Source of the DNA: Planctomycetota bacterium
GTDB taxonomy: Bacteria > Planctomycetota > JAJSAM01 > JAKLKS01
NCBI GenBank assembly: GCA_023150535.1
Contig: JAKLKS010000001.1
Coordinates: forward strand, 8,269-72,268
Direction: 5' to 3'
DNA: 64,000 bases
The position numbers were made by a program, and so were the translations under genes. Positions 3,890-36,586 of the stretch are shown piece by piece. The notes below the pieces were generated by a model, which saw nothing but the letters and a program-made list of their open reading frames with translations, was not told the DNA's origin and searched no databases. How positions within the stretch are numbered: the first letter of the stretch is position 1; every line of letters begins with the position of its first letter.

Positions 3890-4465
3890 CTACCGCAGCA
3901 CGGCCCGCAGGCGGTTCGACAGCGACCCGCCCTTGTTGCCGACCTTCTCCCGGGGGCCGACGTGCTTCTCGCAGAACGCGTAGGCGGCCTTGTTGATGGA
4001 CTCCTTGAGGGCGGCGAGCGGGATCACCTCGGAGGTGCCGGGCTTGCCCTTCACCGCGACCCGGACGCCCTTTTCGACCCGCTCGACCTCGAAGGAGACC
4101 TTCTCCGACACGTTGGCCCCGCGCCCCCCCTCGAACTCGCAGGGGACCTCGGCCTTCCGGCACGCCTCGCGGTAGGGCGCCACGGCCTTGCGGTAGGCGT
4201 CCTTGGCCCCGGCGACCATCGCCCGGGCCTTCTCGGTCATCTCGTTCGCCTCGGCCTCCGCCACCGCCAGCGCGGTCCTGGCCTCGTCCACCGGCTTCCG
4301 GAGCGCCTCGAGATCCACCGGGGGCGGGGCCTTCGTCTCGGCGGCCTTCGGCGCCTTCACCCGCTTCCCCTTCTTCCCCGTCGCGGCCGGCGCGGCCACC
4401 GTGGTCGTCGCGCCCTCGGCCGGCGCCGCGTCCTTCCTCGTCGCCTTTTTCTTCGCCTTCGCCAT
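3890..4465 (-). CDS. Lys/Ala-rich histone H1-like phage protein (192 aa)
   Basis: Start MAKAKKKATRK at 4465 with GGAGAGGAG RBS; N-terminal 60 aa KAP-rich low complexity then globular domain. Confidence 0.55.
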   Translation of the reverse strand: MAKAKKKATRKDAAPAEGATTTVAAPAATGKKGKRVKAPKAAETKAPPPVDLEALRKPVDEARTALAVAEAEANEMTEKARAMVAGAKDAYRKAVAPYREACRKAEVPCEFEGGRGANVSEKVSFEVERVEKGVRVAVKGKPGTSEVIPLAALKESINKAAYAFCEKHVGPREKVGNKGGSLSNRLRAVLR

Positions 4466-4515
4466 GATCGTCTCTCCTCTCCGGGCCTTCGCCCGGAACG
4501 TCGGAACCAGCGTCC

Positions 4516-4696
4516 TCACGCCTTCACCGCCTCGATGCCCCGGACCTCGGCGAGGTCCCCGTAGAGGGCACGGGCTTGGAGGAGCGCGTCCTTTCCGTCC
4601 GTGGCGTGGAGGTCGGGGACCCTCATCGCGAGGGTCTCGCCGTCCACGGCGACGCGGACGTACACCTCGAACCGTTCGAGCTGCGGGCGGGCCACG
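4516..4696 (-). CDS. Small hypothetical phage protein (60 aa, GTG start)
   Basis: C-terminal part of spurious ORF 4516..5412; GTG at 4696 preceded by GGAGG and overlapping stop of upstream gene. Confidence 0.35.
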
Positions 4697-4697
4697 G

Positions 4698-4925
4698 TCA
4701 GGCCTCCGTCACGCAGAGGTGGCCCGGCCCGTTTCCCTCCGCGTCCTGCCAGGCCTGGAGCACTACGCGCTGTCCCGCGCGCGTGCGGACCTCGACCTCC
4801 GCCACCACCCGCCCGTCGAACATCCGGGCCGGGCGGACCTCGACGAGGGTGGCGCCCGCCAGCCCGGCGTACTCCTGGCGGATGGCGTCCTCCTCGCGCT
4901 TCTCCCACTCCGTGGGTCGCGGCAT
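4698..4925 (-). CDS. Hypothetical phage protein (75 aa)
   Basis: Start MPRPTEWEK at 4925 with GGAGAGGAGG RBS. Confidence 0.5.
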   Translation of the reverse strand: MPRPTEWEKREEDAIRQEYAGLAGATLVEVRPARMFDGRVVAEVEVRTRAGQRVVLQAWQDAEGNGPGHLCVTEA

Positions 4926-5056
4926 CTCTTCCTCCTCTCCGGTCCGTGCGGGCCCCGACCGCCGGGACCTCGTGGACCGCTGGACATGAGGGCGAGGGCC
5001 GCCAGACACATCCACTTCCTTCCGCCGACTGGTCGGGGACCGCCGCTAGGGAGTTG

Positions 5057-5458
5057 CTAGGGGGCCTCCTCCCCCGAGGTCCAGACCTCGAAGTCCTGGG
5101 TCGTGCGATACAGGTCCACCTCGGCGTCGTAGGCCCACCGCTCCGAGACGAGGAAGGCGGCCTGGACCTCGAGGCCCCCCGCCGCCCCGGAGTGCCCCGC
5201 GAGGACCCGCCGCACCGCGAGCCCGAGCGCCGTCGCGTCGGCACGCTTCCTCGCCCAGGAGTCCACGACGACGCTGACCCGCCGAACCCCCGTGGGGCCG
5301 GAGAGGGAGATGTCCTCGTCGGCGGAGACGACATCGAACACCACCGCGGGCGGCGTCGGTGCCTGCGGGAGGACCTCGCTGTAGACGCGGTCCGCGGCCA
5401 GCGCCGCGACACCCGGGTCCTGGGTGAGGACCATCCGGAGGTACGCGCCGAGGGTCAA
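5057..5458 (-). CDS. DUF3168-like phage tail completion/terminator protein
   Basis: TTG start overlapping gp10 stop with GAAGGAGAG RBS; position after gp10 as in GTA g8. Confidence 0.55.
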   Translation of the reverse strand: MTLGAYLRMVLTQDPGVAALAADRVYSEVLPQAPTPPAVVFDVVSADEDISLSGPTGVRRVSVVVDSWARKRADATALGLAVRRVLAGHSGAAGGLEVQAAFLVSERWAYDAEVDLYRTTQDFEVWTSGEEAP

Positions 5459-6009
5459 TCGAGGAGGCTCTCCTTCGCCTTCTTCGAGAGGGTGCCCTTG
5501 TTGGCTTTCCGCGCGAGGTCCTCGGCCTTCTTCGCCAGCGCCCGCCAGAGTTCCTCACCGATGGCCACGGCGGTCCTCTCGGAGTGCATCGCGAACGCCG
5601 GCCCCAGGAACTCGAAGGCGCGCGTGGCGGAGTGCCGTCGCTTGTTCCTCCGAAACTTCCCCCGGTCGTCCCGGTAGACGCGGCCGCGGCGCTTCGTACC
5701 CTTCTCCACGAACAGCCCGTAGAAGTGGTCCGCGTCGGGGCCGAGCTTGACCGCGATCTCGTTCGGGAACTCGGAGTTCGCCTTCACAGCGGAGACGGTG
5801 ATGGAGTCTGCCAGCGGCTTCAGCTCTCCCGCGGGGACGCCCCCTCGTACGCGGGGGTTCGCCTGGCGACGCACCCGCGCCTTCGCCTCCCGGACCATGG
5901 GCTCGGCGGCCTTCTTCAGGGCCCCGAGGACGAGCTCCCTCCTCAGGGACTTCGGCAGTTGGGCGAGGGCCTCGTCGAGTTCCTTGAAGCCCACCACCGC
6001 CACCCTCAT
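5455..6009 (-). CDS. Phage protein, HK97 gp10 family
   Basis: Start MRVAVVGFKELDEALAQLPKS at 6009; family-typical N-terminus; ATGA overlap with adaptor gene. Confidence 0.7.
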   Translation of the reverse strand: MRVAVVGFKELDEALAQLPKSLRRELVLGALKKAAEPMVREAKARVRRQANPRVRGGVPAGELKPLADSITVSAVKANSEFPNEIAVKLGPDADHFYGLFVEKGTKRRGRVYRDDRGKFRRNKRRHSATRAFEFLGPAFAMHSERTAVAIGEELWRALAKKAEDLARKANKGTLSKKAKESLLD

Positions 6010-6348
6010 GGCCGCCTCTCCGTTCGCCCGCGGGCGACGATGAGGAGCGCCTCCTGCCGACCTTCTTCGGCGACGGAGACGACGTCGTAGGGGACGTCGG
6101 CGTAGGTGACCCGGTGGAGGGGGGTGATGTCGTCCCGCCACCGAACGGTGAACCGGAGGTCCCCCGTCGCAACGAACTGCTGCGCGCCGAAGTTCTCCCG
6201 GCCCCCGAGGGGCTCCACCCGGGCCCACACCGTGGCGAGCGGCACCCAGGAGACGACGGTCTGTCCCGATGGGTCGACGACCTCGACCCGGCGCTCGAGG
6301 GTCACCCGGCGGTCGAGCAGCCCCGCGCGGACTACCACCGGAGCACTC
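6006..6348 (-). CDS. Phage head-tail adaptor / head closure protein (SPP1 gp16-like)
   Basis: C-terminal 114 aa of spurious 838-aa ORF: RVTLERRVEVVDPSGQTVVSWVPLATVWARVEPL... typical head-tail joining family; GTG start overlapping connector stop. Confidence 0.55.
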
Positions 6349-6901
6349 GGTAGGGACCGAGGAGCCACTCGGCCGAGTGTGGAATGGGTTGCATGGCCAC
6401 GGGGGCGACCGTCTCGCGGTTCGCGTAGAGGGTGCCGACGATGAGGAGGACGGCCGCCCGGATGGCCTCGGGCACGTCCTCGGGGTCGCCGTAGCCGCAG
6501 GTGTACTCGACCCGGACGGCGTCCTCGGTCGCGAGCTGGAAGGGCCACGCCTTCCCGTAGGCGGGAACGACCTCGCCCGGGACCTCGGCGGCGCGGACCT
6601 GGTAGTCCTCCGCGGGGACAGTCTGGAGGATGCCGTCCAGGTCGAGGTACCGGACCGCCTCCACGGACTGGAGAGGCGGGTACTGGAGGACGATGGCGCC
6701 GCCGGGGAAAGCGTCGAGGGTCAGCCGCCAGCGCTGCGTCAGGAACCGCCGCCGGCAGAAGGCCTCCGCCTGCCCGGTCGCGGCGAGGGCCAGGGACTGG
6801 ACGAGGGCGGCCTCCTCGGGGTTCTCGGCGCGGAGGTGGACCTGGGCGTCCTCGAGGGACACCAGCGGCGCCGCCGGCGCCTCCAGGAGGAGGAGGCCCA
6901 C
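6332..6901 (-). CDS. Phage head-tail connector (gp6-like, DNA packaging)
   Basis: 189-aa ORF, QYPPLQSVEAVRYLD... connector family; GTG start with AGGAG RBS. Confidence 0.7.
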   Translation of the reverse strand: MGLLLLEAPAAPLVSLEDAQVHLRAENPEEAALVQSLALAATGQAEAFCRRRFLTQRWRLTLDAFPGGAIVLQYPPLQSVEAVRYLDLDGILQTVPAEDYQVRAAEVPGEVVPAYGKAWPFQLATEDAVRVEYTCGYGDPEDVPEAIRAAVLLIVGTLYANRETVAPVAMQPIPHSAEWLLGPYRVLRW

Positions 6902-6904
6902 GCG

Positions 6905-7123
6905 CTACTCCTGGGGAGGAGGCGGGGCCTCCTGGCGCGGCGCACGGGGCTTCCGGGGGGCAGGGGGCTGCGAGGCCGGCGGGGCGTCGGGGACCTCCGC
7001 GAGGCACCGGGCCCGGACGAGCCGCCTCACGTCCTCGGCCGGGAGCAGGGGGCAGTCCTGCCCCGGGTCGACGTAGCGCCCGGTCGCCCGGTGGAAGAAC
7101 CGCGAGATGACCTGGAGGGCCAC
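6905..7123 (-). CDS. Hypothetical phage protein (72 aa)
   Basis: ORF between capsid-adjacent gene and connector; Pro-rich C-terminus. Confidence 0.4.
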   Translation of the reverse strand: MALQVISRFFHRATGRYVDPGQDCPLLPAEDVRRLVRARCLAEVPDAPPASQPPAPRKPRAPRQEAPPPPQE

Positions 7124-7132
7124 GGGCGCCCC

Positions 7133-7531
7133 CTACGGTCCGTACCGGCGGTTCCCGCGGGCGAGGTAGGCCGCCCCGAGCTTCGCCGCCTCGTCGATGG
7201 AGAGGGTCACCCCGACGTGGGTGAACCCGTTCTTCCCGTCGAGGTCCTCGGGCACGAACTCCACCTCCACGTCGGGCGGGGACGCGCCCCCCACCCCGGC
7301 CGCGGTCGCTGCCACGCCGAGTTCCTTGGCCCCCGTCCCGGCCGCGTCCTTGGCCTGCCTGGCCTGCACGGTGAGGACCTTCCCCGCGGTGACCGCCCCG
7401 GCCTTCGCGAGGAGCACGATCCGCCCCGCGTGGGTGCAGTCCAAGTACCCGCTCGTCACGGGCGCCGTCCCCACGTCCTGGGGGGGCACGAGCGCGTCGA
7501 ACGCCACCGCCTCGGTGAGCTTCCTGGTCAT
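7133..7531 (-). CDS. Hypothetical phage head protein (132 aa; possible decoration protein)
   Basis: Immediately downstream of major capsid gene; ATG with RBS. Confidence 0.55.
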   Translation of the reverse strand: MTRKLTEAVAFDALVPPQDVGTAPVTSGYLDCTHAGRIVLLAKAGAVTAGKVLTVQARQAKDAAGTGAKELGVAATAAGVGGASPPDVEVEFVPEDLDGKNGFTHVGVTLSIDEAAKLGAAYLARGNRRYGP

Positions 7532-7555
7532 GGGTCTCTCCTCCCTCTCCCCCGA

Positions 7556-8818
7556 CTACGCGGGCACGTCGAGCCCCACGAAGGGGCTGTAGGTCTGCCC
7601 GTCCTCCTGGGCGATGGGCCCGTCGAGCCACGGGGCCCCGTCCACGCTCTTGAAGGCCTTCACGACGGTCTTGTTCTGCTTGAAGAGCACGTGCTCGCTG
7701 GCGGCCACCGTGGTCTGGACCCCGTCCTTGATGAGGTAGTAGCTCGGCACGAGGAGTAGGACGTCGCCGAGCGACCCGAGCGCCGGGCTCCGGTAGTTCC
7801 GGACCACCTGGCGCCCGAGGAGAGTGGGCGGCGCCCCCGACCGCGCGTCCTCCTGCCAGATGAGGTGCCCCGCCGTGTCCTCCATCTGGCGGAGCTTCGG
7901 GATGACGCGGGGGTTCACGATCCAGACGGCCTCGCCGTCCTCGTGGAGCTCCGCCTCCATGTTCACGAGGTCGCCGTAGCCGACGTCGTTCGCGGCGGCG
8001 CGGTTGACCTTCTTCAGCGCCGGGGACGCCAGCGCCCCGAGCGGCCGCCCCACCCCGTTCCCCCGGAGGAACGCCACATCCTCCGCGGCGAGGATCCCCG
8101 CCCGGAGCATCCGCTCGATGAAGGTCGTCGCGGAGCGCCAGTTCCGGAGCAGCTTGTCCGTGACGACAATGTGGGCCGCGACCTCCTTCGGGCTCCAGCG
8201 GGACTCGCGGAGCTTGAGGCTCGTCTCGGGCTTCTCCGCCCCCTCCCGCACCCAGTCCACCTGGACCCCGCCGTAGATACTGGCGCCGGAGCCCTGGTTG
8301 AGGCTCGGGAGCACCAGGTCGGCGTCCGGGGAGTCCCCCGCGGGGACGACCACCGCGCGGGGCCGCATGATGGCATCCTGCGGGGCGACCTCGCGGATCG
8401 TGGGGTCGATGTCGTCGGGGATGGGGAGACCGCCGGACTCCCCGGTCCCCATCTCGAGGAGGGCCTGGACGCGGGGGTCCTCGGGCCGGAAGCGGGCGCA
8501 GTAGACGAGCTCCCCCACGCACTCGAAGCCGGGATTGGCGATGACGGGCTTCTTGCCCTTGGCGCTGGGGGCAGCCGGAGGGGGCGGGTCCCCCTCGGGG
8601 CGCGGCTTCACCGGCATGGGGTCGAGGCGGGCGAGCGCCGTGCGCTCTCCCTCCACGAACTCCGCCCGCTCGATCTGGCGGGCCAGCCCCTCGAGCTGGG
8701 CCCGCATCTCGGCGAAGGCCTTCTGCTCGGCCTCGTCGAGGGGCTCCTTCTCGGCGAGGGGGGCGAGCTTCTCGACGAGTTCCTTCCGGGCGCGCTTGAG
8801 CTCCAGCACCTTGGGCAT
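7556..8818 (-). CDS. Major capsid protein, HK97 family
   Basis: 420 aa with coiled-coil delta domain at N-terminus and HK97 MCP-like core. Confidence 0.9.
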   Translation of the reverse strand: MPKVLELKRARKELVEKLAPLAEKEPLDEAEQKAFAEMRAQLEGLARQIERAEFVEGERTALARLDPMPVKPRPEGDPPPPAAPSAKGKKPVIANPGFECVGELVYCARFRPEDPRVQALLEMGTGESGGLPIPDDIDPTIREVAPQDAIMRPRAVVVPAGDSPDADLVLPSLNQGSGASIYGGVQVDWVREGAEKPETSLKLRESRWSPKEVAAHIVVTDKLLRNWRSATTFIERMLRAGILAAEDVAFLRGNGVGRPLGALASPALKKVNRAAANDVGYGDLVNMEAELHEDGEAVWIVNPRVIPKLRQMEDTAGHLIWQEDARSGAPPTLLGRQVVRNYRSPALGSLGDVLLLVPSYYLIKDGVQTTVAASEHVLFKQNKTVVKAFKSVDGAPWLDGPIAQEDGQTYSPFVGLDVPA

Positions 8819-8862
8819 GGGGTCGGTCTCCGTGGCCTCCTGCGTCAGGACGAGTCTCGGGG

Positions 8863-8886
8863 CGCGGGAGGGCCGATCAAGTCAGG
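8863..8886 (-). promoter_or_regulatory. Conserved intergenic motif copy 2 (CGCGGGAGGGCCGATCAAGTCAGG)
   Basis: Shares GCGGGAGG-N2-CGATCAA core with copies 1,3,4; between protease stop and capsid start. Confidence 0.4.
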
Positions 8887-9743
8887 CGGAACACGTCCAG
8901 GATCCGCCGGCGGGCGTCCCGGGAGAGCCCGGGGGCATGGGGCGGGGTCTCCTCGTCGGGAAGGGGCCGCTCCACCCGCGGCGCGGCGATCTCGGCGGTC
9001 CGAGGGAGGGCGGGGAGCGGGCCCTGCCCGCCGGGGGGCTCCTCCGCGGTGGCCCCGCCGACCCGCGCCGCGAGGCGCTCCGGCACCCGCTTGAACCGCT
9101 CGAGGCCGAACACCGCCGCGGCCTTCTCCGGCTTCTCCGTGCCGTCCGCGAACCCCTCCGCCACCGCCTCTTCGGCGGTCATCCACCACTCCCCACCCGC
9201 GTCCGCCACGCGCTGGGCCAGCGTGGCGGCCCGCCGCCCCGTCCGCCGGGCGTAGGTCGCGAGCATCGCCGACCACGCCTTGTCCAGCGTCTCGGCCTGC
9301 CGGCGGAACTCCTCCGCGTCGCCGAGTACCGCGGTCCAGGGCCGGTGGACCATCAGCATCGCGTTCTCCGCCACGATGGTCTCGTCCCCGGCCAGGGCCA
9401 CGAGGGACGCGATGGAGGCAGCCAGTCCGTCCACGTGGACCGTCACCTTCCCCGGGAACCGGGTGAGCGCGTTGTAGATGGCGATGCCCTCGAAGACGTC
9501 GCCGCCGTTGGAGGAGAGCCGGACGTCGAGGGCGGGCACGTCCGCCAGCGCGCGGAGGTCCTCCACAACCCGGCGGGCCGGGATGCCCCCGAGGAAGTCC
9601 TCCCCGAGGATGTCGTAGAGGTAGAGCGTGGCCGTGACGGGCCCGGGCTCGACGACCTGGGCTCCGTCCTGCTCCCCGGCGGGGATGGCGGCCCACACCT
9701 TCTCCACGGCGTAGCCCTTCCCGTCCTTCAGCGCGGTGGTCAT
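8877..9743 (-). CDS. Prohead protease (ClpP/S14-like head maturation protease)
   Basis: Start MTTALKDGKGYAVEKV at 9743 with AAGGAGA RBS and ATGA overlap with portal stop; VRLSSNGGDVFEGIAIYNAL and MVHRPW motifs of ClpP family. Confidence 0.85.
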   Translation of the reverse strand: MTTALKDGKGYAVEKVWAAIPAGEQDGAQVVEPGPVTATLYLYDILGEDFLGGIPARRVVEDLRALADVPALDVRLSSNGGDVFEGIAIYNALTRFPGKVTVHVDGLAASIASLVALAGDETIVAENAMLMVHRPWTAVLGDAEEFRRQAETLDKAWSAMLATYARRTGRRAATLAQRVADAGGEWWMTAEEAVAEGFADGTEKPEKAAAVFGLERFKRVPERLAARVGGATAEEPPGGQGPLPALPRTAEIAAPRVERPLPDEETPPHAPGLSRDARRRILDVFRLT

Positions 9744-11023
9744 GCGGGGGTCTCCTTCTGCGGCAGGGTGGTGGCCTGGTCCGTCGGCGCGGCCGGTGCG
9801 ACCGGCGCGGAGGTGCCCACGGGAACGAGGTTTCCGGGCCTGACGCGGTGCTTGCCGAGCCCGTCCGGCAGAGCGTTGAGCTCTTCCAGCTCGCGGACCT
9901 CGTCGAGGTCGTAGACCCCCCTGTCCAGCATCTGCCCGTAGAACTGCGCCCGGGCCGTGAGGTCCCCGCGTAGGAGTGCGTTCAGGTTGTGCCGGGCGTA
10001 GTAGCGGCCCCTCTCCGAGGGGAGGAGGAGGTCGCGGGTGATGGTCGCCTCGAACCGCACGAGCCAGGGCCGAAGCGTGTTCTGCACGAACTCCAGCGCC
10101 GCCTGCTCCATGTTCGCGCGCGGCTGCGCGGTCGTGTCCCCCAGCATGTGGAGGGGGACGCGGAAGATGCGGGCGATCTCGGCCACCTGGAACTTCCGCT
10201 GGTCGATGAACTGGGCGTCGTCGAGGTTCATCCCCACCTTCTCGAACTTCGCCCCCGCCTCGAGGATGACCGTCTTCCCGGCGTTGACGGCGCCGGCGTA
10301 GGCCGCATCCCAGGAGGCCTTGAAGCGCTGGTATTCGGGGTCCTCCATCACGGCCGGGTGGGTGACGACCCCGGCCACGCGGGCGCCGTTCTTCATGAAG
10401 GACGCCTGCGCCTGCTCGAGGACCAGGGAGATGCCCATCGACTCCCGACAGAGGCCGATGGGGCTGAGGCCCGTCACACCGTTCCACGAGAGGCCAGGGA
10501 TGCGCCACACCTCCCTGGGCCGGAGGGTCCGCGGCTTCACCCCGGGCTCGTTCACCTCGACCAGGAGGGGGCCGCCTGGGGTCTCGCGGTAGTCCCGCGT
10601 GTGAGCCGGGAGGAGGGGCCAGAGTTCCCGCACGTCCCCGCCGCCGTCCCGGACCACCTGCGCCCGGGCGTTGCCGCGGAGGAGGACGTGGGCGCAGAGG
10701 GTCTCCCGGAGGGACTGAGCGGTGATCTCCTCGTTGGCCTCGACGTGGAGGACCTGGTCGAGGGGGTGCTCGTCAGCGAGGCGCCGATCCCCGTTCGCCT
10801 GCTTCTCGTAGACCCGAAGCGGCAGCGTGCTGATGGTCTCGGCGATCACCTTCACACTGGAGAGGACGGCCGTGATGCGAAGCGCTGAGTCGTCGGTGAC
10901 GGAGACGCCCGAGGCCGTCGGGGCGGAGACTCCGGGGTACTTCCAGAAGGTCTCCGGGGGCTCGTCCGAGATCACCCACCCGAGGAGTCGGCGGGCCAGG
11001 CGGCGGATGGGACCGGGGGGCAC
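9740..11023 (-). CDS. Phage portal protein, HK97 family
   Basis: 427 aa; ...FQVAEIARIFRVPLHMLGD... portal motif. Confidence 0.9.
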   Translation of the reverse strand: MPPGPIRRLARRLLGWVISDEPPETFWKYPGVSAPTASGVSVTDDSALRITAVLSSVKVIAETISTLPLRVYEKQANGDRRLADEHPLDQVLHVEANEEITAQSLRETLCAHVLLRGNARAQVVRDGGGDVRELWPLLPAHTRDYRETPGGPLLVEVNEPGVKPRTLRPREVWRIPGLSWNGVTGLSPIGLCRESMGISLVLEQAQASFMKNGARVAGVVTHPAVMEDPEYQRFKASWDAAYAGAVNAGKTVILEAGAKFEKVGMNLDDAQFIDQRKFQVAEIARIFRVPLHMLGDTTAQPRANMEQAALEFVQNTLRPWLVRFEATITRDLLLPSERGRYYARHNLNALLRGDLTARAQFYGQMLDRGVYDLDEVRELEELNALPDGLGKHRVRPGNLVPVGTSAPVAPAAPTDQATTLPQKETPA

Positions 11024-11041
11024 GTCCTACAGCGTGGGGGC

Positions 11042-11061
11042 GCGGGAGGATCGATCCATCC
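11042..11061 (-). promoter_or_regulatory. Conserved intergenic motif copy 3 (GCGGGAGGATCGATCCATCC)
   Basis: Just upstream of portal start. Confidence 0.4.
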
Positions 11062-11191
11062 ACGGTCGTCAGCCAGCCCTGGCGGCACTCCCACTCCACT
11101 ACGGCCTGCGGTGTGCGAGCGCCAGACGGCGGCCAGGTGTTCCGCGACTCGGGGATCCGGGCACCCACCTCAGGGCTACCTCAGGACCCGA

Positions 11192-13702
11192 CTACTTCCT
11201 CCTCCGCCTAGCCTGCTTGGTCACGTCCTCGTGGAGGTGGGTCGGGGAGAGCCTGAGTTCATCGAGCAGGAGCGCGACGTCCTTTCGGCTCCAACCTCCT
11301 GGCTCCCGCGCCGCGAGTCTGCCAACCAGCTGGGTGGCACGGTCCTTGAGCTCAGCGAGCCCCTCGTGCTCGATGGTCCGCAGGTGGTCGATCGGATCGA
11401 GGTCGGCCAACGCCGTGTCGATGACCATCACGGGCGTCACCGGTGCGCCAGGGTAGTTCCTCTCGAACCAGGAATGGCTCAACGTAATCTGCCCCATGTC
11501 GCGCTTGCAGATTGCATCCGTCTCAGACCGGCTCTTGCACTCGATCACCCAGCTCATGTCTCGCCAACGCCACAAGTTGTCGGGGCCGTCACCTTCATCC
11601 CGCTCCGGTCGCTCGCTCTGCGCGCCCAAGACGGCCCCTAAGAATTCCGTGGCGTCCTCGAAGGCCACATGTCCGACGCCAAAGTACAGGTCCATGAGTC
11701 GGCTGGCCGCCTCCGCCACGGCTCCCTGGCCATCGGCGAATTGCCCGTACCATTTCAGGACGTTGTCGGCCGCAGAGGCCAGAGCGGCATCTCTCGGCCT
11801 CAGGGCTGTGACCTCTGTAGGCCGGAGCAGTCGATGTGAGATCGCGTACGCCTTTCGCTGGATACGCATGGCCTCATCTGGGTCCGATCCGACCGTCATC
11901 CTGCCGAGGACCTGGAGGTATCGAGCGTAGGAGGGGCCCGAGTCCAGCTTCGCCTTGTTGAGCGCCTTGCTCAATGTGTCGACTGCCGCCGGCGCATCTC
12001 CATCGATCGCCTGAACGAGCGACCTGCGTTCAGCATCGGCAAGATTCACCGCCACCGGATCGCCACCCTTCGGAGGGTTGGGGACCCGGTTCCGCACTCT
12101 CTGGATGTAGATGTCCTTCCACACGCCCGCTCGGCGAAGGCAGTTGTCGACGAGCTCGTCGAAGGCCTCTTCGCCCGACGCACTCTCCGCTCCGCGGGCC
12201 AGATCTATGAGCTCCTTCCCGAGAGTAAGTTGCGCCTGGACCTCGTCACTCATCTGCGATCGAACGTCGGTCTTCGAGACGAAGCTCGCCAGCGCTTCTC
12301 CACCAAGGACGACGACCGCATAGTCGGCACTCGATCGCACCGCGCGTCCCATTCCCTGCTCGATGCGATAAACAACGCGGTTCCGGACCCCACCGTCCCT
12401 TGGACTGCTGCTACTGTCCATCTCATCTGTAAGGCCCTGCCCCCGGGGGATTCCATCGAGGACCAGGATCCGGCAAGCGTCGTCAGGCAGATCGATGCCG
12501 TCGAACCTCTGCGCAAAGGCGGCGAATCGTAGATCCCCCTTACGAAGGTCTCTTACGGCAGCAGCCACGTCGGCGTGGCCAGCTGGCGCGGCAGCACCAT
12601 GGGCCTCCCACTCCTTGGCTTCAGCCGCACTTGAGCAGAGGACGACCACGGCATCCTTCTCCGAGCGAGATGCGGCCCACATCATGAGCCACTCGCGGTT
12701 CATTTCTCGGTCGATCAGAGTAGGCGCCAGGATCATCCGCTCGCCAATGCCCGACTCCTTGGAGGGGGTAATGGGCCCCAGAGCCGCTGCGACTTCGCAC
12801 CCGAGTTCGCGGACCAGCACGGAGTCATCCGAGAGGGTCCCCGACATGAACAGCCGATGAGCCGCTTCATGGTATGGGCGGATCTCGCGGACAAGCGGGA
12901 CCTCTGTAGATAGCTCGACTACTCCGCGCCCGATCACGACCCGCAAGAATGGCAGAGATGCCCTGATCAGTGGCCAACGGAGATCTCGATCCGCTCCTGT
13001 TGCGTACTTGCGAACGAGGGCTTCGACCCGGTCACCCAGCTGGGGAAGGTGCCAGTAGGGGACCTCGATAAGAACCCTGGGGTCGCCCTCGCGAATGTCC
13101 CGCCACGCACTGCGAAGGTGCTTCACCATCACTCCATCGATCTCGCCGATGAAGTGCGTCACTCCCTCCGGGTCGGAGATCCGAAGAGTGAAAGCGTCTC
13201 GCACCTCCTCGACCCCCGCATGGGCATCGTCGAGAACCAGTGCCGTGGGAACGATCCCGACGTCTTGGCGGCTGAACGTCGTACGGGCATTGAACAACTT
13301 GTCGTAGGTGCAAACGATCACGGCTTGGCCAGAGAGACAATCGGCGTGGGGGTGAGGTTCTCCCGACGCGTAGGGGTGGGCGTCTAGGCCGAGGCGTCGA
13401 GCCTCCACCAGGACCTGGTCAGCGAGTTGGAGATTGGGGCATAGGTAAACGCCGACCCCCTGGGTTGCAGCCATGTGGGCCTTGAGGTACAGAAGCCCGA
13501 CGGTCGACTTCCCAGACCCCGTGGGCATCTTCAGCACTAGGTCGCGCTCGTCCCGCCGCTTGTGAAGCTCCTTCAGCGCCGCGACTTGGAACGGCCGAAG
13601 GTTGACGTGCGAGGTCTTCCGGTCGAGGCCCTCGAACAGCTGGAGTGGATCCGTCGGTTGGCCGCCGCCACGCTTCGAGAGGAGCTTCCGCAGGTCAACC
13701 AT
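11192..13702 (-). CDS. SF2 DEAD/DEAH-box helicase fused to C-terminal putative PD-(D/E)xK nuclease domain (836 aa); moron in packaging module
   Basis: Walker A LKMPTGSGKSTVG, DExH-like LVLDDAHA, motif VI QGMGRAVRS; C-terminal WRDMSWVIECKSR. Track ORF 1433 aa but N-terminal ~600 aa overlaps terL in another frame; start MVDLRKLL at 13702 with GGAGGA RBS (alternative 13765). GC visibly lower than neighbours. Confidence 0.8.
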   Translation of the reverse strand: MVDLRKLLSKRGGGQPTDPLQLFEGLDRKTSHVNLRPFQVAALKELHKRRDERDLVLKMPTGSGKSTVGLLYLKAHMAATQGVGVYLCPNLQLADQVLVEARRLGLDAHPYASGEPHPHADCLSGQAVIVCTYDKLFNARTTFSRQDVGIVPTALVLDDAHAGVEEVRDAFTLRISDPEGVTHFIGEIDGVMVKHLRSAWRDIREGDPRVLIEVPYWHLPQLGDRVEALVRKYATGADRDLRWPLIRASLPFLRVVIGRGVVELSTEVPLVREIRPYHEAAHRLFMSGTLSDDSVLVRELGCEVAAALGPITPSKESGIGERMILAPTLIDREMNREWLMMWAASRSEKDAVVVLCSSAAEAKEWEAHGAAAPAGHADVAAAVRDLRKGDLRFAAFAQRFDGIDLPDDACRILVLDGIPRGQGLTDEMDSSSSPRDGGVRNRVVYRIEQGMGRAVRSSADYAVVVLGGEALASFVSKTDVRSQMSDEVQAQLTLGKELIDLARGAESASGEEAFDELVDNCLRRAGVWKDIYIQRVRNRVPNPPKGGDPVAVNLADAERRSLVQAIDGDAPAAVDTLSKALNKAKLDSGPSYARYLQVLGRMTVGSDPDEAMRIQRKAYAISHRLLRPTEVTALRPRDAALASAADNVLKWYGQFADGQGAVAEAASRLMDLYFGVGHVAFEDATEFLGAVLGAQSERPERDEGDGPDNLWRWRDMSWVIECKSRSETDAICKRDMGQITLSHSWFERNYPGAPVTPVMVIDTALADLDPIDHLRTIEHEGLAELKDRATQLVGRLAAREPGGWSRKDVALLLDELRLSPTHLHEDVTKQARRRRK

Positions 13703-13788
13703 GGGGATCCTCCGCGCACCAGTGAGAACTGGAGTGTACTGGCCTGACCTGCGCCGAGGAAGCATGGTCCTTCGCCCCTGGGTGACTA

Positions 13789-15666
13789 TCAGACGGTGCG
13801 CACTCCTCGAGTGGCGTATGGAGACGCGGGGCCACTGGGCAGAACCATGAGTCGCGAGAGCGCCGTCACCGTAGCGACGACCCCGTCGATGCGCCTCTTC
13901 GGATTCGCTTTCACGGGCCGGATGTTCTCGTTCTCGTCCTCCTTCACGGCGGCGTTCGAAACGCACCAGGACATCGCGCGGTTCCCGTCGTGGTGGACCC
14001 GGCGCGCGCGGGTGAGGGCGTGGAGGACCTTGCACGAGGTGGAGAGCGTCTTCGGACCCTGCCGGACCTCTACTGGCTGGAGGCCCGCCTTCTCCAACTG
14101 CAGCGCGAACTGGAGCGCGTTCCAGGGGTCGTAGCCGATCTCCTTCACGCGGTACCGCGGGGCCAGCTCGTCCACGATGGTCCGGAAGATGAAGTCGTAG
14201 TCCACGACGCTCCCGGGAGTGGTGCGGAGATGGCCCTCCCGGACCCATACCCCGTAGTCCACGCCGTCCTCCTTGGACCGCTCGTGAAGGCGCTCCTCGG
14301 GCATCCAGAGGAAGGGGAGCACGGCCAGGTCGTAGTTGATGGACAGCACCTTCTTCACCGGGGCACCCGCGGCGTCGAACTCGACCGCCTGGACCGTGGG
14401 GACCTTCTCCCCCTCGAGACGGCTCTCGGGGAGGCGGAACACCAGGACGAACGCCGTGAGGTCCGTCGTCGAGGAGAGGTCGAGCCCGCCGGCGACGGGA
14501 CGCTTGACAAGGGACTCGGGCCCGGGCAGCGACGGGCAGTCCTTCCACCACTCGATGGGGATCCAGACCTCGTTCGTCCGGGTCCAGATGTTGAGGTGGA
14601 GGCGCTTGAAGGCCCCCTGCTTGCGAGGCTCCGCCTGGGCCGCCCGGCACTCCGCCTCGAGGTAGTCCCGCTTCACTGTCACCCCGAGGGAGGGGTTTGC
14701 CTTCGCCCAGATCCGCGGGTCCCGCCAGTCGTCCCCCTCCTTCGCCTCGAAGATGACGGGGAGGTAGGTCTCGTCCTCGATGAGCCCCGACATGACGCGC
14801 TTGGCGTACTCGTACTCCTCGTAGCAGACCGAGTCCTGATCGTCGCCGGCCGTGGTGATGAGGACCACGATGGGCTGGCGCCGCGCGGCGATGCCCTTGG
14901 ACAGTGTGTCGTAGAGGTCGCGGTTCGGCTGGGTATGGAACTCGTCGAAGAGGAGCGCGTGGATGTTCGGCCCGTGGCGGCCCTTCACCTCCGAGGAGAC
15001 CACCTTGAAGGAGGAGCGGGTCTCCGGCACCACGATGGCGCGGCGGTAGGTCTCGGACCTCGCTGCCAGGCGCCGGCTCGCAGCGTTCATGTCGCGGGCC
15101 TCGTTGAACACGATCCCCGCCTGCTCGCGGTCGGCCGCCGCGGCCACGATCTCCGCTCCGGGCTCGCGGTCGCAGTGGAGGAGGTAGAGGCCGAGGCCGG
15201 ATATGCAGGCCGACTTCCCGTTCTTCTTCCCGATGACGATGAACACCTTCCGGAACCGCCGGAGGCCGTCCGAGGCCCGCTTCCACCCGAAGAGCGGCCT
15301 GACGAGGAGCTCCCGCTGCCAGTCGAGGAGGTCGAAAGGCTGCCCCGCGAACTCCCCCGTCAGGTGCCGGAGGAAGGTCGGGAAGAAGTCCACCGCCCGG
15401 GCGGCCTCCTCCTCGTCGAAGAAGTAGCGTCCCCCGTGGTCGTGGACGGGGATGGTGACCGCGGGCCAGCGCTCGAGGGCCAGGGCGTTCCACGGGGACA
15501 CGGGGGCGGTCTGATTCACACCGACCAAGATCGGGGCGAGCGAGACTCGTGCCACTCCGGTAAGGTCATCCTCCTGCGGCGCCGGAGCCATCCGACCCGA
15601 GGAATGCCCTTCAGTGGTACTCTCGGAGTTGTTGACGTGCTGGCGGAGGGCCGGAGATTGGAGCAC
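13789..15666 (-). CDS. Terminase large subunit
   Basis: 625-aa ORF with ATPase and nuclease halves (..VFIVIGKKNGKSA.., LLFDEFH, ..EIGYDPWN..); start may be internal ATG at 15591. Confidence 0.85.
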   Translation of the reverse strand: MLQSPALRQHVNNSESTTEGHSSGRMAPAPQEDDLTGVARVSLAPILVGVNQTAPVSPWNALALERWPAVTIPVHDHGGRYFFDEEEAARAVDFFPTFLRHLTGEFAGQPFDLLDWQRELLVRPLFGWKRASDGLRRFRKVFIVIGKKNGKSACISGLGLYLLHCDREPGAEIVAAAADREQAGIVFNEARDMNAASRRLAARSETYRRAIVVPETRSSFKVVSSEVKGRHGPNIHALLFDEFHTQPNRDLYDTLSKGIAARRQPIVVLITTAGDDQDSVCYEEYEYAKRVMSGLIEDETYLPVIFEAKEGDDWRDPRIWAKANPSLGVTVKRDYLEAECRAAQAEPRKQGAFKRLHLNIWTRTNEVWIPIEWWKDCPSLPGPESLVKRPVAGGLDLSSTTDLTAFVLVFRLPESRLEGEKVPTVQAVEFDAAGAPVKKVLSINYDLAVLPFLWMPEERLHERSKEDGVDYGVWVREGHLRTTPGSVVDYDFIFRTIVDELAPRYRVKEIGYDPWNALQFALQLEKAGLQPVEVRQGPKTLSTSCKVLHALTRARRVHHDGNRAMSWCVSNAAVKEDENENIRPVKANPKRRIDGVVATVTALSRLMVLPSGPASPYATRGVRTV

Positions 15667-15969
15667 ATTCCATACCTCGCGTTCCTTCCCTACCTACCGC
15701 TGGAGAGGCCGGTCGTGTTCTCGAACTGGTGGCTGGGCCCGGCGGCGAGGTTCAGGAGACCCTGGGCGAGCCCCGAGTTCCACACGGCATCACGGCGGTT
15801 CCTCACCAGGTTCCGGACTGCAGACGGGCGGCGAGTGACTAGCCCTGCGATCCTTGCCCATCGTGAGCGGGGGGCCGATGGCCGCCTCCCAAGTGCACAT
15901 GAAGTTGAGATCCTCGAAGCCACGATCCTATTCGCCGTCCTTGACGCCAACCCGGAATGGTCTGAGGAA

Positions 15970-16824
15970 GTGGATGCGAGGAGGGTCGCCACCTCGGACA
16001 ACGCAGATCTGTTCCTCTGGCCCATCGATGTCGGCGGCGGCGTCACGATGGGGCCTCACGGACTGATCGTCCAGCACATCACCGGAGGACTCCGATTCAC
16101 GCGACGAGGATTTCGAGTGCCGGGCCCTCTGGCCCTCTCGCTGCCACGCAAGCTGACGCTCGACGCGGACCTCATGGGAGCGCTAGTCGGCGCGATGTCG
16201 ATGGCAGGGCCACGGCAGCCAGAGTCCGATGCTGCGCGGATGCTCCGGGCGATCCGCTGGTACGGCAAGGCGTGGAGGAACGACCTGAAGCTCGACTGGG
16301 GCGAGCGGGTCGTGATGCTCAAGACCGCGTTCGAGACGCTCCTCAACGAGGACGACACCCGGATGGCCGCACGCAAGATCGAGAGGCTCTTCTGCCGTGT
16401 CCTCGGAACCCGCGACACGGACCTCCTGTGGAAGCCGAAGGAGCGTAGGCGGGTCGTGACGTACACCAAGCTGAGCGGCAATACTGCTCATGAGGCGCGC
16501 ACGGACCTGATGGACTGGTGCATCACGTTCGGTGAGGCGCGCAACACCGTCGTCCACAAGGGGCTCTCACCCGAGATGATGTACGCCTGCCCTGGAGGAT
16601 CTGCGTACGACGGTCACCTGTTCCACACTGGTTCCCGGCTCTTCCGCGAGGCGGTGAAGGTGCGGCTGGAGGACGTGGGATTCCCAATGATGTGGGCGAG
16701 CGCGCGCGTGCGACACGGCGTCCGCCTCTTCACGCGAATCCGGCAGAGACTCGCCCGTTCGCGCCGAGGGGGTTGTAGCACCCGAACTTCAGAGGCAGTG
16801 ACGGTGCGGACGCCGAGACCCTGA
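15970..16824 (+). CDS. HEPN-motif hypothetical protein (putative RNase/abortive-infection-like); start uncertain (GTG 15970 or ATG 16048)
   Basis: Plus-strand coding in C-terminal third of track ORF 13990..16824; lower GC from ~15890; C-terminal DWCITFGEARNTVVHKG contains canonical R-N-x3-H HEPN signature; embedded between terL and terS on opposite strand. Confidence 0.5.
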   Translation: MDARRVATSDNADLFLWPIDVGGGVTMGPHGLIVQHITGGLRFTRRGFRVPGPLALSLPRKLTLDADLMGALVGAMSMAGPRQPESDAARMLRAIRWYGKAWRNDLKLDWGERVVMLKTAFETLLNEDDTRMAARKIERLFCRVLGTRDTDLLWKPKERRRVVTYTKLSGNTAHEARTDLMDWCITFGEARNTVVHKGLSPEMMYACPGGSAYDGHLFHTGSRLFREAVKVRLEDVGFPMMWASARVRHGVRLFTRIRQRLARSRRGGCSTRTSEAVTVRTPRP

Positions 16825-16829
16825 GTTCG

Positions 16830-17342
16830 CTACCCCGCCCCGAAGAACCGCTCGTCGAGGTCGGACTCGCCGGGCGCCACGCCCCGCGCCCCGCCCGCGG
16901 CGTGGACCCGGGATCGGCTCGACGGCGTCATCCCGAACTCCACGAGGAACGCCCGCATCTGCTCCAGGGCCTTGTTCGCGATGGCGAGGTAGGGCGAGTG
17001 GGCGAGGTAGCCCGAGGGGGCCTTCACGACTGCCCCGTACTGGCGGACCTTCTCCTCGGCGTCCAGGAGCCGGGCGTAGGCGAGGCAGTAGCCCATCAGT
17101 GCCGGCCCGTCGATCTCGGTCAGGAGCCCGGCCTTGAAGAGGATCCTCCCCATCCGGTGCCACTCGCGTCGGGACGCTCCGTCGAGCACCTTGGGGCAGG
17201 CCGGCATCCGCCGGCGGGGCTCGGGCTCGGTCTGGTTGAGCGGCCGGTGCCCGGGATTCCCCGCGAGGACCTTGAGGAGCGTGGGCTTGGGCTTCCGGCC
17301 GCCGCCGGGCGCGCGGGACCTACCCACACGCCACCTCCGCAA
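16830..17342 (-). CDS. Terminase small subunit (P27 family)
   Basis: ...GYCLAYARLLDAEEKV...YLAIANKALEQMRAFLVEFGMTPSSR... typical P27 TerS. Confidence 0.8.
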   Translation of the reverse strand: MRRWRVGRSRAPGGGRKPKPTLLKVLAGNPGHRPLNQTEPEPRRRMPACPKVLDGASRREWHRMGRILFKAGLLTEIDGPALMGYCLAYARLLDAEEKVRQYGAVVKAPSGYLAHSPYLAIANKALEQMRAFLVEFGMTPSSRSRVHAAGGARGVAPGESDLDERFFGAG

Positions 17343-17517
17343 GGGCGCGGGCGCCGTTCGAGGACGGGCCGCGCGGACTCCGGGGGACGAGGGCGCCGTC
17401 GCCGGGCCCCCTCGGCCCTCGCTTCCCGCAGAAGATGCACCACACCCCGGGGTCGTACCGGTCGCCGCGCTTCCAGGATGGCGGCGCGAGGAGGTACTGC
17501 CAGTAGTGGATCCCCAT
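17320..17517 (-). CDS. Small hypothetical protein (MGIHYWQYLL...WCIFCGKRG)
   Basis: Part of ORF 17320..17595; no clear RBS. Confidence 0.3.
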   Translation of the reverse strand: MGIHYWQYLLAPPSWKRGDRYDPGVWCIFCGKRGPRGPGDGALVPRSPRGPSSNGARALAEVACG

Positions 17518-17537
17518 CCAGCAGAGGAGGCGGCGGA

Positions 17538-18950
17538 TCACGCGGCCCCCTTCGCTGGGACGCGTTCCGCCTTCTTCCCGGTGAACTGCTCCCACCGCGC
17601 GACGATGACGTCGGTGTAGAGCGGGTCGATCTCGATGAGCCGCGCATTCCGCCCCATCTGCTCAGCGCCGATGAGCGTGCTGCCCGAGCCCCCGAAGAGG
17701 TCGAGCACCGTCTCGCCCGGGCGCGAGCAGTACTTCATGGCGAGCGTCGCTAGCTCGACGGGCTTCTCGGTAAGGTGGACCATCTTCTGCGGCGAGACCT
17801 TTTTCACGCTCCAGACGTCGGTCGCGTTGTTGATGTCGGGGGCGAAGTAGTGGGCGGCGCCTTCGCGCCATCCGTAGAACGCCCACTCATGGTTCCCCAT
17901 GAAGTCCTTCCGCGTGAGGACGGGGTGCTCCTTCACCCAGATGATGGCCTGGGAGAAGTAGAGCCCAGCCTCGACGAGCGCGGGCGGGTAGTTGGCGATA
18001 TTGCTGTACCCGCCCCAGATGAAGAACCCCCGCCCCGGGAGGAGGACGCGGGCGGCGTTCCCGAACCACGCGCGGAGCTTCTCCCGGAACGCCTCGTCGG
18101 ACATGAAGTCGTTCTCGAGGGGGCGGTCCTTCGCCCGCATCCGCTTGTGGGTGGGCTTCGACTTCTCCGGGTGGCGGTCGAGGTCGGCCGCCTGGTGGTG
18201 CATCGTGCCCTGGAAGGAGGAGAGGCCGGCGGCGATGGCGTTGTTCGAGCGCGGCTCGACGCGGACGTTGTAGGGCGGATCGGTGTTCAGAAGGTGGACC
18301 GGCCCGCCGTCCAGGAGCCGGTCGAGATCCTCCGGGCTCCCCGAGTCGCCGCACAGGAGCCGGTGTTCGCCGAGGATCCAGAGGTCGCCGCGGCGCGTCG
18401 TCGGCGTCTCGGGCGGCTCGGGGATGTCGTCGGGGTCGGTCTCCCCCTCCTTCGCCTCCGCGCCGATGCCGGACTTCTGCGCGAGGTCATCGAGCATCGC
18501 GCGCAGCGCGGCGTCGTTGACGGTTGCCTGCGCGAGGAGGGCCTCCAGCTTGGCCGGGTCGGCCGTCGCCATCCCGGCGAGGGGGTCGAGCGACGCGAGG
18601 ACGAGCGCCTCCTCGGCCTCGTCGAGGTCCACGTAGACGACGGGGATCGCGGTCTCGCCGCGCGCCCGAGCGAGTTCCACGCGGAGGTGCCCGTCCACGA
18701 GGTGGCCCGTGCGGCGATTGACGACGACGTCCTGGACCCATCCGACCTGGTCGAGGAGGCCCGCGAGCGCCGCTTGCTGCGCTGGCGGATGCCCGCGCCA
18801 GTTCCTCGGGTTGGCGACGAGCGCCGCCGGGGAGGCCTCGCCGCGGTCCACGATGCGGGAGCGCCAAGGACCGGGCGAGGGCGCCGCCGGAGCGGCCTTC
18901 CGCTTGCGGCCCTTCCGGGTGGCGGCCTGGCTCACGACCAGGCCTCCCAC
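17538..18950 (-). CDS. ParB-like nuclease domain fused to DNA N6-adenine/N4-cytosine methyltransferase
   Basis: N-terminal ParB/Srx-like domain, C-terminal MTase with TDPPY motif and FGGSGST AdoMet motif; common terminase-adjacent phage gene. Confidence 0.85.
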   Translation of the reverse strand: MGGLVVSQAATRKGRKRKAAPAAPSPGPWRSRIVDRGEASPAALVANPRNWRGHPPAQQAALAGLLDQVGWVQDVVVNRRTGHLVDGHLRVELARARGETAIPVVYVDLDEAEEALVLASLDPLAGMATADPAKLEALLAQATVNDAALRAMLDDLAQKSGIGAEAKEGETDPDDIPEPPETPTTRRGDLWILGEHRLLCGDSGSPEDLDRLLDGGPVHLLNTDPPYNVRVEPRSNNAIAAGLSSFQGTMHHQAADLDRHPEKSKPTHKRMRAKDRPLENDFMSDEAFREKLRAWFGNAARVLLPGRGFFIWGGYSNIANYPPALVEAGLYFSQAIIWVKEHPVLTRKDFMGNHEWAFYGWREGAAHYFAPDINNATDVWSVKKVSPQKMVHLTEKPVELATLAMKYCSRPGETVLDLFGGSGSTLIGAEQMGRNARLIEIDPLYTDVIVARWEQFTGKKAERVPAKGAA

Positions 18951-31066: not shown

Positions 31067-31159
31067 GGACGCCTGGCCTTTCCGGCCGGGCGTCGGGCGC
31101 CTCTACTGGCCGCTCAGGGCGTCAAGCGCCTCTCGGTGGTTGGTAGTGCAGCTACGGCG

Positions 31160-31390
31160 TCAAGGAACCGGCGGCGACGGACCGCTCGCGGCGGCCGGCG
31201 CCGTGCGCGTGGGGGGATGGTCGTTCGCGAGGCCGCACTTGCGGCAGATGGCGATGGCCTCGCCGAGGACCACGTACTGTGCTTTCTTGTGGCGGAGGTA
31301 GAGGCGCCCTCGGCGTTCCACGCCGAGAAGCGCATCACAGCCGGTGCAGCGCCACTCGCGCGGGTCTAGGTTGGCGCGAGGACCTCGCGC
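31160..31390 (-). CDS. Mu Com-like zinc-finger protein (start uncertain)
   Basis: WRCTGCDALLGVERRGRLYLRHKKAQYVVLGEAIAICRKCG resembles Com translational regulator. Confidence 0.4.
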   Translation of the reverse strand, partial: ARGPRANLDPREWRCTGCDALLGVERRGRLYLRHKKAQYVVLGEAIAICRKCGLANDHPPTRTAPAAASGPSPPVP

Positions 31391-32613: not shown

Positions 32614-32646
32614 CGACGCCTCCCTGCACCACGGATGCCTACGAGA

Positions 32647-36554: not shown

Positions 36555-36586
36555 AATACCCCCCTGTTGCAACGGGCCGCATCTGG

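Follow-up and report, generated by a model that had tools for sequence, protein, structure and literature searches.

Prophage hotspots for defence genes have been mined mainly in enterobacterial elements of the P2/P4 type. Hna of Sinorhizobium meliloti is reported to provide abortive-infection defence as a single, sufficient effector; the protein combines a superfamily 2 (SF2) helicase with a PD-(D/E)XK nuclease, attacks single-stranded DNA as a 3′–5′ exonuclease, is kept as an auto-inhibited dimer by ATP and is activated by the single-stranded DNA-binding protein (SSB) of the infecting phage, and mutation of K729 abolishes its nuclease activity (PMC13381803). HEPN proteins share an Rx4-6H motif at the end of helix 3, with a polar residue (N, D or H) directly after the arginine, in a four-helix core that has inserts between helices 2 and 3 and an acidic residue in helix 2 (PMC3710099). 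ApeA, a single-gene HEPN anti-phage protein, is a ligand-activated anticodon nuclease (bioRxiv 10.64898/2026.01.26.701840). Here we describe a 64,000-nucleotide stretch of a Planctomycetota metagenome-assembled genome (MAG; 88-kb contig JAKLKS010000001.1, locus tags L6R43_, GC content about 72% (0.719)), hereafter the window, which contains a temperate siphovirus-type prophage integrated at tRNA-Arg. Within its late operon, an Hna-type helicase-nuclease gene lies between the genes for the large terminase (terL) and the portal protein, and a HEPN-like gene lies between those for the small terminase (terS) and the large terminase. We consider it likely that the packaging/head operon of this prophage gained two accessory genes (‘morons’) independently of each other: hna, as the present occupant of a hotspot, and the HEPN-like gene, as a one-off acquisition.

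Two inserted segments on either side of terL

The head and packaging genes of the prophage lie on the minus strand in the order methyltransferase (MTase), terS, terL, portal, ClpP and capsid (Pfam). The small terminase gene (16830–17327, −; Terminase_4) was placed by Pfam, over 16830–17342, and by a gene call in locus L135. The large terminase gene (13789–15501, −; 570 aa as annotated) was placed by Pfam TerL_ATPase and TerL_nuclease and a gene call from the same locus; it has alternative in-frame starts as far as an ATG at 15591. The portal gene (9740–11023, −; Pfam Phage_portal, E = 5e-100) is the conserved downstream anchor of the hotspot. Because the high GC content yields long spurious open reading frames (ORFs), real reading frames were chosen by codon-position GC, which favours those of both inserted genes: hna (11192–13702, −; 836 aa) and the HEPN-like gene (15637–16824, +; MCK6478589.1), which runs antisense to the late operon and encodes 388–395 aa from a start at GTG 15637 or TTG 15658. 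The two ends of the interval 11192–16824 are thus the stop codons of these two genes. GC at third codon positions (GC3) is 0.75 in the helicase-nuclease gene, 0.79 in the plus-strand HEPN-like ORF and 0.93–0.97 in the flanking phage genes. A 1433-aa minus-strand ORF (11192–15493) and a 944-aa plus-strand ORF (13990–16824) are not genes: each is the true gene extended through an open frame across terL, an artefact of the high GC content.

Breakpoints were obtained by DNA alignment to locus L001, the closest relative found (TerL 93% identical at the amino acid level; the window TerL is likewise 93% identical to the homologue P0003). Insert 2 (11018–13798, −; 2781 bp, GC 0.639) runs from the terL stop to the portal start, holds hna as its sole gene and stands where L001 has a different, unrelated cargo of 3068 bp. 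Insert 1 (15498–16828, +; 1331 bp, GC 0.651) lies exactly where terS stops and terL starts, in place of the 23 bp that link the two genes in L001. In the junction alignment, insert 1 starts at most 5 nt from the terS stop codon and stops shortly before the conserved N-terminal PWNA motif of TerL; it also provides the terL leader or first codons, as well as a divergent intergenic region of 135 bp (15502–15636). At the terS end, the stop codons of terS and of the HEPN-like gene are convergent and 5 nt apart. The two inserts are the two lowest-GC stretches of the 64 kb: equal-sized segments as low in GC make up 0.7% (insert 2) and 3.4% (insert 1), and every one of them overlaps the two inserts. 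The proposal of the first-pass annotation that two separate lower-GC insertions flank terL is confirmed by these GC and GC3 values and by the exact breakpoints against L001.

The arrangement is not an assembly chimera, since independent assemblies, namely GCA_013360965.1 and Logan contigs of three SRA runs, contain 100% identical DNA; the complete identity of all known copies means that they are all one clone. Neither insert shows a target-site duplication or terminal inverted repeats, the only matches being short and at chance level, and no repeats or mobility genes were found flanking the inserts in the window. RNA folds in the intergenic regions are unremarkable (z-scores −0.45 to +0.93).

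The slot between terL and portal

Relatives were gathered via TerL, by homologue search, from the gene tables of eight homologues and by scans of genomes, metagenomes and IMG/VR, and terS, terL, portal, MTase and capsid were placed in 135 loci by jackhmmer. A close clade, defined by TerL identity of at least 75%, comprises 16 non-redundant relatives. The interval between terL and portal exceeds 500 bp in all ten close relatives in which it could be measured (867–3069 bp), and five further close relatives have no portal gene within at least 1.5 kb downstream of terL. The site holds at least 12 distinct gene sets, with cargo in either orientation. Recognised defence-type occupants include AbiEi/AbiEii with PRiA4 (L001; AbiEii, PADLOC 5e-60), HTH-M78/RmrA with a 211-aa partner in a RosmerTA-like pair (L006; RmrA, PADLOC 5e-68), PDC-M41A with DUF5131 (L011; PDC-M41A, PADLOC 4.5e-73) and HEC-07 (L022; PADLOC 1.5e-36). 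A TIR protein (L002 and L035), a SIR2 protein (L046) and a nuclease of the PLD family (L032 and L033) give domain-level matches to TIR/ThsB, SIR2/ThsA and PLD/DrmC, respectively. The cargo also includes genes outside defence, namely insertion-sequence (IS) transposases (DDE transposases in L010 and L013) and RCC1/subtilase genes: in L026 (TerL 80% identical), a 7.4-kb cargo (4076–11445) consists of two RCC1-like beta-propeller genes and two subtilase (S8) genes. Several relatives carry unannotated proteins, for example of 665, 451, 351, 211 and 206 aa, and the cargo of L005 consists of unknown proteins of 665, 131 and 48 aa.

The occupied site is the derived state, as outgroups with TerL identities of 58–64% are empty. 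Two of them (L007 and L009, 62–64%) have 28 bp between the called terL and portal genes; in two others (L045 and L041, 58–59%), alignment-based terL–portal distances of about 94 and about 225 nt are consistent with adjacent genes. Variable cargo in all measurable close relatives, together with the empty outgroups, makes the terL/portal junction a real hotspot, and its cargo is rich in defence genes as judged by PADLOC and domain matches rather than by a formal enrichment statistic. Variability begins at the terL stop and ends at the portal start, as expected if conserved gene ends act as recombination anchors. The interval would then be a lineage-wide exchange slot in which each related phage keeps a different, mostly anti-phage cargo, anchored, probably, by the conserved ends of the two flanking genes (3′ for terL, 5′ for portal); in the window phage the cargo is hna. 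The earlier view of the whole terS-terL-portal block as a variable hotspot accordingly holds for this junction, filled in 10 of 10 relatives, and fails for terS/terL, which is filled in none of 12; comparison across related prophages, which had been put forward as the check, shows the first junction to be variable and the second invariant among close relatives.

Two further observations concern these loci. The cargo of L026 appears to be a duplicated RCC1-like/subtilase pair and is not a recognised defence system. In L028–L033 (MAG CBDFJG01, Planctomycetota), about 1056 bp interrupt a terL homologue (79% identical) close to the P-loop, following approximately residue 127 (for example, L033:6615-9416); the interruption is intein-like, and the same element is found in at least six copies in this one long-read MAG, several at contig ends. 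LAGLIDADG_3/Hom_end Pfam matches are present in two TerL homologues, P0014 (921 aa) and P0055 (955 aa).

In the window phage, hna starts 86 bp after terL and ends 168 bp before portal, in the same orientation as the late operon. Its 836-aa product has Pfam matches to DEAD (1e-10), ResIII and Helicase_C_2, matches phrog_16128, a PHROG family of unknown function, at 2e-81 and aligns about end to end with the PADLOC model PDC-S28, a candidate single-gene system (residues 1–831, model positions 1–827 of 831, E = 3.7e-219). A phmmer search of PDB sequences gave one strong match (E = 6.4e-107), to chain 10UJ/9YKJ, which is S. meliloti Hna according to the depositing paper (PMC13381803). The alignment pairs residues 1–760 of the window protein with chain residues 1–768 of 845 and leaves the last approximately 75 residues unaligned. 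Both SF2 helicase domains (HEL1 and HEL2) and the C-terminal PD-(D/E)XK nuclease are present, and at the residue level the Walker A motif (PTGSGKST in the window, HTGQGKTL in Hna), the DExH-like motif (LDDAHA and MDDAHA) and the nuclease motif (‘GPDNLW...D..vi-ECKS’ and ‘GPDNLW...D..fECKS’) correspond, with the lysine of E-C-K matching K729 of S. meliloti Hna. The helicase-nuclease that had been noticed beside terL is thus real and is identified as Hna by the PADLOC model, the PDB match and the motif alignment. We regard the protein as an Hna orthologue with its catalytic motifs intact, which adds a member to a system already known and characterised in its mechanism. By analogy, it would protect the lysogen against superinfecting phages as S. 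meliloti Hna does.

Searches for phage-borne counterparts returned little. Against 50,697 phage records, the window Hna had a single match, which is actually a contig of a Salmonella genome, and a search of IMG/VR with the protein found no relatives. A DUF669-type SSB, a possible trigger of Hna, was not found in the window by tblastn with one fragment from L005 as query.

The gene between terS and terL

The second insertion has a different history. In all 12 close relatives in which the junction is measurable, terS abuts or overlaps terL, with more than 300 bp between them in none (0/12), and the window phage is the only member of the close clade with an insertion here. With no relative filled at this position, the HEPN-like gene reflects a single insertion event and not a recurrent hotspot: a separate, one-off insertion would have delivered a solitary gene on the opposite strand. 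Only distant clades (TerL identities of 39–55%) have the MTase gene between terS and terL, sometimes with 3–5 kb of other genes. This order is seen in L014, L034–L038, L042, L045, L097 and L099–L126, the gene order of the packaging module being rearranged between clades. In one relative (L011/L057:5262-6061), an insertion of about 800 bp divides the MTase gene that lies upstream of terS, the tblastn pieces corresponding to query residues 6–357 and 349–470.

The HEPN-like protein is annotated as hypothetical at NCBI. It has no match among the models of Pfam, NCBIfam, PHROG and PADLOC, and a word-indexed protein search returned only the protein itself. A phmmer search of 1.8 billion cluster representatives gave 345 relatives at E ≤ 1e-3, the best 42% identical and most about 370 aa long; the family thus comprises about 345 clusters at 50% identity, mostly environmental and including members from Planctomycetota. 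In an alignment of 57 sequences, four residues are invariant (T112, W287, R295 and H300) and others nearly so (N296 and E226, each at least 90%, and R217, N208 and W201); another 86 sequences retain the R, N and H of the resulting RNxxxH motif, each with conservation of at least 90%. Across these 57 and 86 sequences, the family has the HEPN motif, Rx4-6H with a polar residue after the arginine. Copies at least 90% identical to the window protein are found in a Myxococcota-labelled bin (L6R50_26060/26065, frameshifted, two ORFs) and, in partial form, in a Planctomycetes bin (L6Q95_13585); the same prophage mis-binned and real spread are both possible.

An AlphaFold2 model of the protein, built with the 57-sequence alignment, is confident (predicted local distance difference test (pLDDT) 93.9, predicted template modelling score (pTM) 0.91) and shows an N-terminal alpha/beta domain of approximately residues 1–165 and a C-terminal helical domain with R295-N296-x3-H300. 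Core helices 191–205 and 214–229, the latter containing E226, are followed by an insert made up of helix 234–249 and a beta-hairpin (266–281); R295 to H300 then lie at the C-terminal end of helix 283–301, after which come a loop and helix 321–339. As modelled, this layout of helices and motif agrees with the description of HEPN domains (PMC3710099), with E226 as an acidic residue outside the typical Ex3[KR] context. The C-terminal domain modelled alone has a pLDDT of 93.6, and its only globally superposing PDB matches are HEPN proteins, 4nqf and the sacsin HEPN domain 3o10. HEPN_Apea is the only Pfam family matched by more than one member (6 of 143, weak and sub-threshold, best E = 0.012). For the whole model, Foldseek gave nothing significant in PDB or BFVD, and the family profile searched against PDB sequences gave chance-level matches only. 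The label ‘HEPN protein’ is therefore a plausible inference from motif and modelled layout and falls short of being established, given the missing Pfam, NCBIfam, PHROG and PADLOC matches; we judge that the protein is probably a HEPN-fold RNase, its C-terminal domain having the predicted hallmarks of a metal-independent HEPN nuclease.

The homologues of this gene are solitary in five independent contexts, and on longer contigs they adjoin transposases, an integrase, VapE/DUF3854 and HTH/M78 regulators. In L049–L053, an unusually long non-coding stretch of about 220–760 bp, which might contain a regulatory element, precedes the start of the homologue (approximately 5300–6000); in L049–L051, variants of one locus, the homologue is followed by a convergent Exo_endo_phos gene and a helix-turn-helix (HTH) gene.

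These features make the HEPN-like gene a candidate new single-gene HEPN defence or toxin gene from an unannotated family. The candidate defence role draws on domain logic, mobile contexts and the position in a prophage, and not on association with defence islands. As in ApeA-type defences, the N-terminal domain could detect a cue of infection, upon which tRNA or mRNA would be cut by the HEPN domain and infection aborted. Expression would probably come from the 135-bp divergent region imported with the insert, and antisense transcription of the late operon might, speculatively, damp the gene during the lytic cycle of the prophage itself. That the gene founds an unrecognised single-gene anti-phage family, with a new N-terminal sensor domain joined to a divergent HEPN RNase and with self-immunity arising from an antisense placement silenced by late read-through, is a tentative idea that we hold to be possible, with the balance tilting against it.

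Competing readings, prophage context and known systems

Several results weigh against the preferred reading. The 1.3-kb antisense insertion breaks the usual coupling of terS and terL, which could mean a defective prophage or impaired expression of the packaging genes. All copies that carry the insertions are 100% identical, and there is no sign that a phage with this arrangement spread or diversified. A scan for sigma-70-like promoters, which does not cover the promoters of Planctomycetes, found none near either cargo gene, and intrinsic terminators around the two genes are not above chance expectation. As to the HEPN assignment, the Pfam HEPN matches (E ≥ 0.012) lie below the gathering threshold, so the assignment is not statistically established, and the structural matches have Foldseek E > 1, with a TM-score to 4nqf of 0.41–0.46, that is, below 0.5. 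As to defence, no PADLOC model meaningfully matches any of the 57 family members, and the neighbours of the homologues give only weak PADLOC matches (HTH/M78 regulators of CapH/CapP/RmrA type and a weak restriction endonuclease match), with no clear defence-island signal. The family is also absent from 50,697 phage and 72,556 plasmid records (tblastn), and IMG/VR yielded no relatives with either the single protein or a nine-sequence alignment as query; the absence from these collections leaves the family with no independent association with phages or known defence islands.

One alternative is a cryptic prophage in decay, its packaging crippled, in which both insertions ride along as selfish or neutral DNA, the HEPN-like gene being an addiction-type toxin or a hitchhiker, and no benefit to the host being implied. 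It would explain a gene antisense to the late operon that disrupts an otherwise universal adjacency or overlap of terS and terL (0/12 relatives filled), the identity of all copies with no documented viral spread, the IS transposases in the slots of two relatives, which indicate that the slot takes junk too, and a HEPN-like family lacking defence-database matches. Other results speak against it. The ORFs of the head module keep their full length and closely resemble their counterparts in relatives (TerL 570 aa against 576–582 aa, portal 427 against 419 aa, GC3 0.93–0.97), and the boundaries of the inserts leave both the terS stop and the TerL PWNA motif intact. All catalytic motifs of Hna are intact, purifying selection on the HEPN-like family is clear from catalytic-type residues that do not vary among 143 sequences, and recognised defence genes make up most of the slot cargo. 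We regard this alternative as unlikely.

Less probable still, and rather improbable in our view, is that the cargo serves the lytic programme of the phage or counter-defence, with Hna degrading host or competitor DNA and the HEPN-like RNase shutting off the host, and with no protection of the lysogen. The position of hna would suit such a role, since the gene shares the direction of the late operon, follows terL by 86 bp and precedes portal by 168 bp, and no terminator was detected, so that it is probably co-transcribed late; phage nucleases and RNases for host takeover do exist. Yet the characterised function of Hna is abortive infection triggered by the SSB of a foreign phage (PMC13381803), and late transcription runs antisense to the HEPN-like gene. 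Relatives, moreover, manage without both genes and carry AbiE, RosmerTA-like, TIR and SIR2 genes in the slot, classic defence or toxin-antitoxin cargo that argues for a shared role in protecting the lysogen and not for a core lytic function.

A two-component system split by terL, which the first-pass annotation had left open, finds no support and is very improbable indeed: the two genes lie within 5.6 kb, are both lower in GC than the phage, are both absent from every relative, and hence jointly present or absent in a small sample, and would recall known pairings of a helicase or nuclease with an effector, such as Hachiman, but Hna is reported to be a single effector sufficient for defence (PMC13381803) and belongs to a PADLOC family of single-gene candidates (PDC-S), the HEPN-like homologues are solitary with no Hna-like neighbour in five independent contexts (a small sample), each of the two genes has its own strand, its own insertion with its own boundaries and its own GC3 (0.75 versus 0.79), and relatives fill terL/portal with unrelated cargo while their terS/terL junctions are bare. 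Co-occurrence, proposed as a further check, does not extend beyond the window: homologues of the two inserted genes are missing from all other TerL-related loci (about 130, a small sample), so related prophages do not uniformly carry the pair, and jackhmmer found Hna in the window only, across 135 loci including 7 with HEPN-like homologues. Hna and the HEPN-like gene thus appear to be functionally independent, in line with the reading of two separate acquisitions preferred here.

Upstream of terS lies the N6/N4 DNA methyltransferase gene (N6_N4 MTase, 17538–18950, −), and downstream of portal lie the genes for a ClpP protease (8877–9737, −) and the major capsid protein (7556–8818, −); a head-tail connector is also among the minus-strand phage genes, all by Pfam. 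The replication module, likewise on the minus strand, comprises an NrS-1-type primase-polymerase/DUF3987, an SF2 helicase, AAA_24 and PDDEXK_1 (Pfam). The right end of the prophage (35133–36663) consists of a tyrosine integrase gene (35133–36554, +; Pfam Phage_integrase) and tRNA-Arg(CCT) (36587–36663, +; ARAGORN), beyond which lie host-type genes, including an OEP efflux gene. A conserved 73-aa ORF between the MTase gene and terS (17320–17541, −) recurs in L001 (1693–1914), and its position is taken by a DUF7768 protein in other relatives. A third lower-GC region (0.66–0.69), between the replication module and the integrase/tRNA-Arg end (31000–34800), could be a further site of cargo in this prophage; two of its ORFs (31366–32613, −, and 33078–33899, −) have no match in Pfam or PDB sequences.

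These observations extend a known principle and add concrete candidates without overturning current concepts. They provide a clearly bounded hotspot in phages of the Planctomycetota, a phylum with poorly characterised phage biology, at an unusual site between terL and portal, inside the packaging/head operon. The 3′ end of terL and the 5′ end of portal are simple, alignable anchors with which candidate defence genes could be harvested from metagenomes. The recently characterised Hna system is now placed on a temperate phage of a distant phylum, and an unannotated HEPN-like family is flagged as a testable candidate for defence or toxicity on the strength of a confident model and invariant catalytic-type residues. 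If the HEPN-like gene does represent a new defence family, then, with Hna adjacent, new defence genes could be sought in the terminase neighbourhood of these phages.

Among known systems, the window Hna is closest to its S. meliloti counterpart, with which it shares size (836 versus 845 aa), the HEL1-HEL2-NUC architecture, the motifs and a stand-alone gene. It differs in being clearly diverged, in belonging to another phylum, Planctomycetota, and in its position inside a prophage head operon. The slot resembles the old/tin and Z/fun hotspots of P2 and the hotspots of P4 (PMC9122126), as well as those of the iLund4u survey (10.1101/2024.10.15.618418), in having conserved flanks and variable, defence-rich content; as here, basal relatives have empty sites in P2/P4-type hotspots, and one P2 hotspot also abuts portal. 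Unlike those, the present slot belongs to another phage lineage and phylum, lies within the packaging/head operon and not at a module boundary, takes cargo in either orientation and is accompanied by a terS/terL insertion that does not recur.

The HEPN-like protein, for its part, shares the two HEPN hallmarks, Rx4-6H and the polar residue, with the lactococcal abortive-infection proteins AbiD/F, AbiJ, AbiU2 and AbiV, which are likewise stand-alone or borne on prophages or plasmids (PMC3710099), but its family has no Pfam-detectable similarity to them at E ≤ 0.1 and its N-terminal domain differs. A closer architectural parallel is ApeA, with the Apea-like HEPN family PF18739: in both, a single polypeptide joins a non-catalytic domain at the N terminus to a HEPN-type domain containing RNxxxH at the C terminus, and both are solitary in mobile contexts. 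Membership of the ApeA family was rejected, since the PADLOC ApeA models match neither the window protein at E ≤ 1 nor the 57 members at E ≤ 0.1, and the N-terminal domain is different, approximately 165 aa of mixed alpha/beta structure as opposed to the approximately 300 aa, mostly beta strands, of ApeA-NTD1. The analogous architecture nevertheless makes an ApeA-like mode, in which a sensor domain is paired with a HEPN anticodon or mRNA nuclease, the best working model for this family.

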